From the NCBI RefSeq assembly GCF_056712565.1, contig NZ_CM160072.1: DNA of 64,000 bases; one strand, given 5' to 3'. Below the pieces are notes generated by a model. The model saw only the letters and a program-made list of their open reading frames with translations. It had not been told where the DNA came from and did not search any database. This document shows, piece by piece, positions 60,603 to 61,446 of the stretch (positions within the stretch are counted from its first letter, which is position 1; each line of letters opens with the position of its first letter). The translations under genes were made by a program, and so were the position numbers.

Positions 60603-60823
60603 ATACTTACCTTCGGCTGAAATCGGCGAACGTTAATTGGCTCACCATATGGCCATGACCAATTCAGCCAGGTAAATGTTTTCAGCTCGCACATCGCATC
60701 GAAAAATTCACCAGGATCGATGTCGGAATAGCTGCAAACTATTTCCAGACCACGTTCTGTTTCTTGCAAAGCAACTGTATCTGTTTCCCAGCGGGGAATG
60801 AGCAAAGAAAATAGTTTATTCAT
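60599..60823 (-). CDS. Hypothetical 74-aa protein inside the lysis cassette ([29 protein letters not shown]...)
   Basis: ORF track 60599..60955 trimmed to the Met whose ATG overlaps the endolysin stop (ATGA); its stop overlaps the i-spanin ATG (ATGA); AAGAAGGTG RBS upstream. Confidence 0.5.
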
Positions 60824-61446
60824 AAAAGCACCTTCTTGGCCGAAAGATACCGTACACGCCGGTCGTCGATACCGTTTCTGCCACCATTGATAATCAGAGT
60901 TACACGTGCAATATCGCCGGTATACTTCATGCATCCTTTGCTGGCGAAGAACCACGCCGCGCTACGAGCCGCATATTCGTCCTGCGCCAGCAGTTCAGGG
61001 CTCTCCAGCAGGTCAACCTTCAGACCGTTTCCGCAATCACGATAGTTATTCAAACCGGTAATCTGGATAAGTCCGCGCCCTCGGTAATTCCAGCCATCAC
61101 CAGGGGCATTGTTCCCCATGCGTTTGCTGTATACCAGATTTGCGATCGCGCGCTGGCGCTCAAGTGGCAATGGTGGTTCACCAGCACGGCGCCCCAGTGC
61201 ATTAGCCTGCCCCTGAGTGAGACGCCCAGCCCGAACGAAGTTAGCCAGTCCGCTGACACTGTAGTTGAAATTCTCCTGCAACCTGGTGAAGCCCCCAGAC
61301 TCATGCCCGACTTGAGCAATAAACATTGCCTGATCTTCTGCTTTGCTGATACCAAACTCTTTCATCGCAGAAGTTATATGCGAGAACCAGCGTGCGGCCA
61401 GTGCCTCGCTGATACCAGCAGCTCGCTGGAATTGTTTAATCTCCAT
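60820..61446 (-). CDS. Phage endolysin, glycoside hydrolase family 19 (chitinase class I-like) type
   Basis: ORF 60820..61611 trimmed to '[11 protein letters not shown]..' (GAGG RBS 6 nt upstream); motifs '[12 protein letters not shown]' and '[16 protein letters not shown]' resemble GH19 signatures (..FLAQ.SHETTGG.. / YYGRGPIQLSWNYNY). Confidence 0.8.

Follow-up and report, generated by a model that had tools for sequence, protein, structure and literature searches.

Introduction

Lambda R is a lytic transglycosylase, and T4 E and P22 gp19 are lysozymes of glycoside hydrolase family 24 (GH24); in catalytic family and in chemistry, all of these differ from glycoside hydrolases of family 19 (GH19). 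GH19 endolysins have been described. The one most relevant to the present work is that of Salmonella phage SPN1S, whose crystal structure has been deposited (PDB 4OK7; Park et al. 2014, Lim et al. 2012, as cited in PMC8547705 and PMC8229158). The SPN1S enzyme is reported in the literature to lyse Gram-negative cells. Published superpositions place 4OK7 on GH19 chitinases.

A second characterised enzyme is PaGH19Lys (PA0629) of P. aeruginosa. It was identified as a muramidase by LC-MS, did not hydrolyse chitin or chitosan, and was nearly inactive as the E60Q variant (PMC12329726). In the GH19 Engineering Database paper (PMC8547705), residues of the endolysin subfamily follow the numbering of SPN1S, and 26 core positions are listed that the subfamily has in common with the chitinases. 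Among these are E49, E58, and T130, which are described as the proton donor, the base, and the water-coordinating residue, respectively.

We analysed a 64,000-nucleotide stretch of an E. coli chromosome (contig NZ_CM160072.1, assembly GCF_056712565.1), hereafter the window, in which a preliminary description had proposed an endolysin of the GH19 type. We have little doubt that the gene encodes a single-domain GH19 endolysin, the orthologue of the SPN1S enzyme, which belongs to a Uetakevirus prophage and acts as a holin-dependent muramidase on peptidoglycan.

Identity of the endolysin

Based on the ORF listing and translation, the endolysin gene is an intact reading frame on the minus strand that runs from the ATG at 61446 to the TGA ending at 60820 and encodes 208 residues, exactly as the preliminary description had placed it. 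The product has a pI of 9.8 and is identical to RefSeq WP_137491943.1, named 'glycoside hydrolase family 19 protein'. In Pfam, it passed Glyco_hydro_19 (PF00182) with 36.3 bits versus a gathering score of 25.5 (E = 7e-9), although the alignment was limited to residues 116-170, the stretch that holds the second of the two motifs considered below. This was the sole Pfam match at E <= 0.01: no lysozyme, SLT, amidase, or other muramidase or transglycosylase family was found, nor was PF00959 or a related family of the lambda R or T4 type (GH24, Phage_lysozyme). The preliminary description had favoured GH19 over the lambda R and T4 lysozyme types and had named a Pfam search for Glyco_hydro_19 as the check; with PF00182 above its gathering score and no rival family at the same threshold, that assignment holds. 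Similarly, PHROG 181 (phrog_181, 'endolysin') matched the protein over its full length (E = 2.5e-90). NCBIfam had no family for any of the six proteins of the lysis cassette, the Rz protein giving a chance match far below the cut-off.

Among solved structures, the best relative was 4OK7 (E = 5e-116), which aligned without gaps over residues 1-207 and was identical at 170 of these 207 positions (82%). The next GH19 endolysin structures were 9EOI, which is PaGH19Lys (E = 6.6e-32), followed by 8P8E, 7R6S, and 9MS6. Approximately 30 GH19 chitinase chains also matched, at E = 1e-8 to 1e-3, each over some 55 residues around the second motif. Judged by sequence, the GH19 resemblance of the endolysin is far beyond chance. 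Modelling the endolysin with AlphaFold on 10 close homologues (alignment A3) gave a pLDDT of 49, too low to support a fold search. For the structure we therefore rely on 4OK7, from whose crystal structure we infer the bilobal, alpha-helical, lysozyme-like fold of the endolysin on the strength of the gapless identity.

Catalytic residues

Both motifs quoted in the preliminary description are present in the protein (Table 1). With no gaps in the alignment to SPN1S, the GH19 numbering carries straight over to the endolysin. The glutamate of the HES motif, which had been proposed to be catalytic, is indeed E49, the proton donor in the GH19ED numbering (PMC8547705). The second catalytic glutamate, E58, had gone unmentioned and sits in the sequence LQENF. 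When compared with Table 1 of PMC8547705, all 26 core positions hold a listed residue and 24 hold the major one, M41 and F167 being listed minor variants; E49, E58, T130, and N191 are all kept. It is this structure-based table, and not Pfam, that ties the HES motif to GH19.

The endolysin subfamily (ELYS) is marked by the pattern I33, R109, G118, and [L/Y]173. The first three of these residues are kept; at position 173 the endolysin has M, which SPN1S, the reference sequence, has too. The stretch of the three-helix peptidoglycan-binding module, residues 59-106, aligned free of gaps and with 75% identity to SPN1S.

The preliminary description had further taken the two motifs to be the signature regions of the family. 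They are conserved catalytic blocks of GH19, not the PROSITE chitinase-19 signatures, which describe the chitinase branch of GH19. Regular expressions for both of these signatures gave no match in the endolysin, a result of little weight.

Organisation of the lysis genes

The six ORFs of the cassette are all intact and lie on the minus strand, with stop-start overlaps between successive genes. Specifically, the stop of the Phage_holin_8 gene overlaps the start of the Phage_holin_3_7 gene, which in turn overlaps the start of the endolysin gene by 11 nt, and orf74 is joined to the endolysin stop and to the Rz start by ATGA overlaps. The genes are translationally coupled. The features of a canonical cassette were found: transmembrane holin genes beside the endolysin gene, an endolysin lacking a signal peptide or SAR domain, and a two-component spanin. 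The RefSeq feature table of the record that is 100% identical leaves the embedded Rz1 gene unannotated, which is an annotation gap and not a biological oddity.

Transmembrane segments of the Phage_holin_3_7 protein were called at a Kyte-Doolittle 19-residue mean of at least 1.9. By the same measure, no transmembrane, signal-peptide, or SAR segment was found in the endolysin, the maximum over the whole protein being 0.57. Since it has no hydrophobic segment, the endolysin is soluble and depends on a holin, and is not of the SAR type.

Table 1. Features of the prophage end and its lysis genes, in window coordinates
Feature	Position (nt)	Residues	Strand	Basis
Prophage/host junction; yfgI terminator hairpin at 59943-59970	59943-59993		.	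Phage ZX5 homology from ~59993
Rz-type i-spanin, 160 aa, DUF2514, N-terminal transmembrane segment aa 4-35	60120-60602		minus	PF10721 E = 4.9e-44; PHROG 312 (Rz-like spanin) E = 6.7e-59
Rz1-type o-spanin, embedded in +1 frame of Rz, lipobox LAGC (Cys26)	60128-60403		minus	PHROG 11621 (Rz-like spanin) E = 1.6e-40
orf74, 74 aa, acidic	60599-60823		minus	PHROG 2241
GH19 endolysin, 208 aa, soluble	60820-61446		minus	PF00182, PHROG 181, 4OK7
Second motif (16 residues): G123 R124 G125 Q128 T130 N134 Y135	61042-61089	120-135	minus	PF00182-aligned stretch
Position of three-helix peptidoglycan-binding module	61129-61272	59-106	minus	Gapless alignment to 4OK7; module defined in PMC8547705
E58, second catalytic Glu, just downstream of first motif	61273-61275	58	minus	PMC8547705 Table 1
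First motif (12 residues, HES)	61288-61323	42-53	minus	Residues compared with PMC8547705 Table 1
E49, catalytic proton donor in first motif	61300-61302	49	minus	PMC8547705 Table 1
Phage_holin_3_7 protein, 102 aa, 3 predicted transmembrane segments	61436-61744		minus	PF05449 E = 5.1e-27; PHROG 217 (holin) E = 1.5e-35
Phage_holin_8 protein, 134 aa, several hydrophobic segments	61731-62135		minus	PF16931 E = 9e-12; PHROG 198 (holin) E = 7.4e-41
Prophage tailspike, endosialidase-type, C-terminal part, cut by window end	62442-64000		minus	ORF, RefSeq

The resident prophage

The endolysin belongs to an epsilon15/phiV10/SPN1S-like (Uetakevirus) prophage that lies beside yfgI in the E. coli chromosome. 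The window matched the chromosome of E. coli strain GPEC1337 at 100% identity. The cassette stands at the left end of the prophage, with the host genes uraA, upp, purMN, ppk1, ppx, pdeF, and yfgGHI to its left and the tailspike gene directly upstream. The cassette is 99.1% identical to that of the isolated phage vB_EcoP_ZX5, of the genus Uetakevirus, and 82-95% identical to the cassettes of phiV10, TL-2011b, the O157 typing phages, and a Salmonella phage of the epsilon15 type. SPN1S is likewise a species of Uetakevirus, and the endolysin studied here is therefore the orthologue of the crystallised SPN1S enzyme.

The attachment junction coincides with the hairpin of the yfgI transcription terminator. 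In phage ZX5, a 27-nt copy of this hairpin, 92.6% identical, lies between Rz and the integrase gene, which fits an att core.

RefSeq names the tailspike, encoded by 3120 nt, 'endosialidase catalytic beta-propeller domain-containing protein'. Several of the top genome matches were K1 strains or avian or extra-intestinal pathogenic strains. Together, the endosialidase-type tailspike and these strain matches suggest a Uetakevirus prophage specific for the K1 capsule. In GPEC1337 (NZ_CM142779.1; the stretches examined include 1343000-1356000), the whole cassette occurs twice, 41.4 kb apart and with identical proteins, and the inner copy is followed by an integrase. The duplication suggests two prophages in head-to-tail tandem, unless it is an artefact of the assembly.

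A megablast comparison detected the cassette in 564 of 5426 complete E. coli genomes (~10%), and 312 of these cover at least 80% of it. The GenBank phage records with the cassette number 59 and come from Escherichia, Salmonella, Klebsiella, and Enterobacter, and 294 candidate stretches in IMG/VR encode a relative. The preliminary description had called GH19 endolysins a minority class in enterobacterial prophages. This remains plausible, yet the enzyme is common and well catalogued: the frequency of about one genome in ten, which counts this cassette alone, is not that of a rarity.

Probable role in lysis

The endolysin most likely acts on peptidoglycan as a muramidase, and not on chitin; the bond specificity is transferred from the biochemistry of PaGH19Lys and the reported lytic activity of SPN1S. 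In a scheme based on characterised relatives and the standard lysis model, the folded endolysin would accumulate in the cytoplasm late in induction, after late transcription. One of the two upstream holin-family proteins would then permeabilise the inner membrane, so that the endolysin could reach the periplasm. The enzyme would hydrolyse the beta-1,4 MurNAc-GlcNAc bond of peptidoglycan, as a muramidase and not as a chitinase, and the Rz/Rz1 spanin would disrupt the outer membrane afterwards.

It is improbable that the gene is instead an inactive relic in a defective prophage, with no role in lysis left to it. E. coli chromosomes carry many cryptic prophages, and the window holds only the end of this one. 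However, the six ORFs are intact and coupled, and all catalytic and core residues of the endolysin are kept. The dN/dS of the endolysin is 0.06-0.11 versus Salmonella and Enterobacter homologues; this purifying selection and the near-identity of the cassette to an isolated phage (99.1%) argue against a dead gene. In the 100%-identical genome, moreover, the annotated genes of a 26-kb stretch around the cassette, with the tailspike and further phage genes on one side and host genes on the other, are intact and carry no pseudogene flags.

A true chitinase, borne by the prophage as a cargo gene and acting on chitin rather than on the host wall, would fit the name of PF00182 ('Chitinase class I'), the label 'chitinase class I' that some phage records give the homologue, and the many plant and bacterial chitinases that match at E = 1e-8 to 1e-3. 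Yet these chitinases match over about 55 residues, whereas the matches to endolysins extend along the whole protein; the subfamily pattern of endolysins is there, as is the insert that binds peptidoglycan, and a secretion signal is absent. The gene also has holin genes on one side and spanin genes on the other, with stops that overlap starts, and the related PaGH19Lys is inactive on both chitin and chitosan (PMC12329726). We consider a cargo chitinase extremely unlikely.

Pinholin/SAR-endolysin pairs are common in lambdoid phages and two small holin-family genes lie upstream here, but a SAR or signal-peptide endolysin, exported by Sec and merely released by a pinholin, is scarcely credible, given that the N-terminal 21 residues are amphipathic and charged, that the maximum 19-residue mean of 0.57 is far below that of a membrane segment, and that the same N-terminal residues belong to the crystallised soluble chain in 4OK7.

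The endolysin is an ordinary enzyme, already known and correctly annotated, with a close crystallised orthologue. The value of the analysis is correspondingly limited: it confirms the annotation, supplies the missing Rz1 gene, and flags a small conserved gene in the cassette.

A small gene between the endolysin and Rz genes

Compared with ZX5 and most relatives, the window has a 218-bp insertion, which creates orf74. The product is acidic (pI 4.6) and soluble and belongs to PHROG 2241 (unknown function); no family was found for it in Pfam or NCBIfam. The gene occurs in 7 of the 5426 E. coli genomes and in 1 of the 80 best viral loci, and is an optional, rare insert of the cassette. The last ~17 codons of the endolysin gene (60823-60880) and the first codons of Rz (60590-60602) diverge from ZX5, the rest being ~99% identical. 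These diverged flanks indicate a mosaic or recombination joint, through which orf74 came in from another cassette.

A total of 16 homologues of orf74 came from Salmonella, Cronobacter, and Enterobacter. Of these, 15 are exactly 74 residues long and one has 81, and dN/dS was 0.04 versus the Salmonella copy. This nearly constant length across three genera, together with the dN/dS value, ruled out an artefactual ORF. Going by the same ratio, strong purifying selection acts on orf74.

In each of the enterobacterial contexts examined, orf74 directly follows the Holin_8, Holin_3_7, and GH19 genes and stands ahead of a spanin gene. The spanin gene itself varies, encoding DUF2514, PF03245, or an unannotated 92-aa protein, as does the surrounding phage type, which may be Uetakevirus or a lambdoid prophage that has a Q-type antiterminator. 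An Enterobacter-type lambdoid contig with the GH19-orf74 module additionally gave a weak Pfam match to Acb2_Tad1_hairpin, an anti-CBASS/anti-Thoeris sponge, in a gene at 3789-4049 of that locus, ~1 kb downstream.

Searching GenBank phages by tblastn returned distant homologues only, at 34-42% identity in Pseudomonas and Vibrio phages, and none in lysis cassettes. The Pseudomonas phage relative is fused to a Lar-like domain and lies beside a DNA methyltransferase, and the Vibrio phage relatives sit after the small terminase. The AlphaFold model of orf74 (pLDDT 80.8) comprises a short helix and four long beta strands; Foldseek of this model against the PDB returned nothing at E < 1.

The gene may be unrelated cargo riding on the GH19 module. 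We think it rather unlikely, though worth noting, that orf74 is an undescribed optional lysis accessory of the Holin_8/Holin_3_7/GH19 module and not a hitch-hiker. As an accessory, it could for example act in the cytoplasm as an inhibitor or chaperone, partnering the basic endolysin and adjusting when lysis occurs.

Comparison with known systems

Lambda R, T4 E, and P22 gp19 have an equivalent role in the holin-endolysin-spanin scheme and an equivalent gene position. The endolysin differs from them in sequence, with no match to their families at E <= 0.01.

Plant and bacterial GH19 chitinases (classes I, II, and IV; 4TX7, 2BAA, 2CJL, 4J0L) share with the endolysin the 26-position catalytic core, which includes H-E-[ST], the second Glu, and G-R-G-x-x-Q-x-[ST]-x-x-x-N-Y. 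However, the similarity is detectable over only ~55 residues. Of the chitinase-specific positions, the cysteines at standard positions 97 and 105 cannot be matched in the endolysin, because both flank the Y106 equivalent and the endolysin is free of Cys in residues 59-137. Unlike these chitinases, the endolysin lacks both a chitin-binding domain and a signal peptide; it has a peptidoglycan-binding insert, would have a wider cleft, and probably has peptidoglycan as its substrate.

PaGH19Lys (PDB 9EOI) is closer: it belongs to the GH19 endolysin subfamily, is of similar length (209 aa), and has the same pair of glutamates (E51/E60). It is nonetheless distant in sequence (E = 6.6e-32), the alignment being gapped around the binding module, and comes from a tailocin (pyocin) lysis cassette, whereas the endolysin described here comes from a podovirus prophage.

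The SPN1S endolysin is the nearest of all. It has the same length, the same E49/E58/T130, and the same three-helix peptidoglycan-binding insert at residues 59-106, and its gene holds the same cassette position in a phage of the same genus, Uetakevirus. The two proteins differ by 37 substitutions, which cluster in residues 1-37 and in the binding module, where identity is 75%. The systems differ further in their hosts, Salmonella for SPN1S and E. coli here, and in the extra 74-aa gene that follows the endolysin gene in the E. coli prophage.
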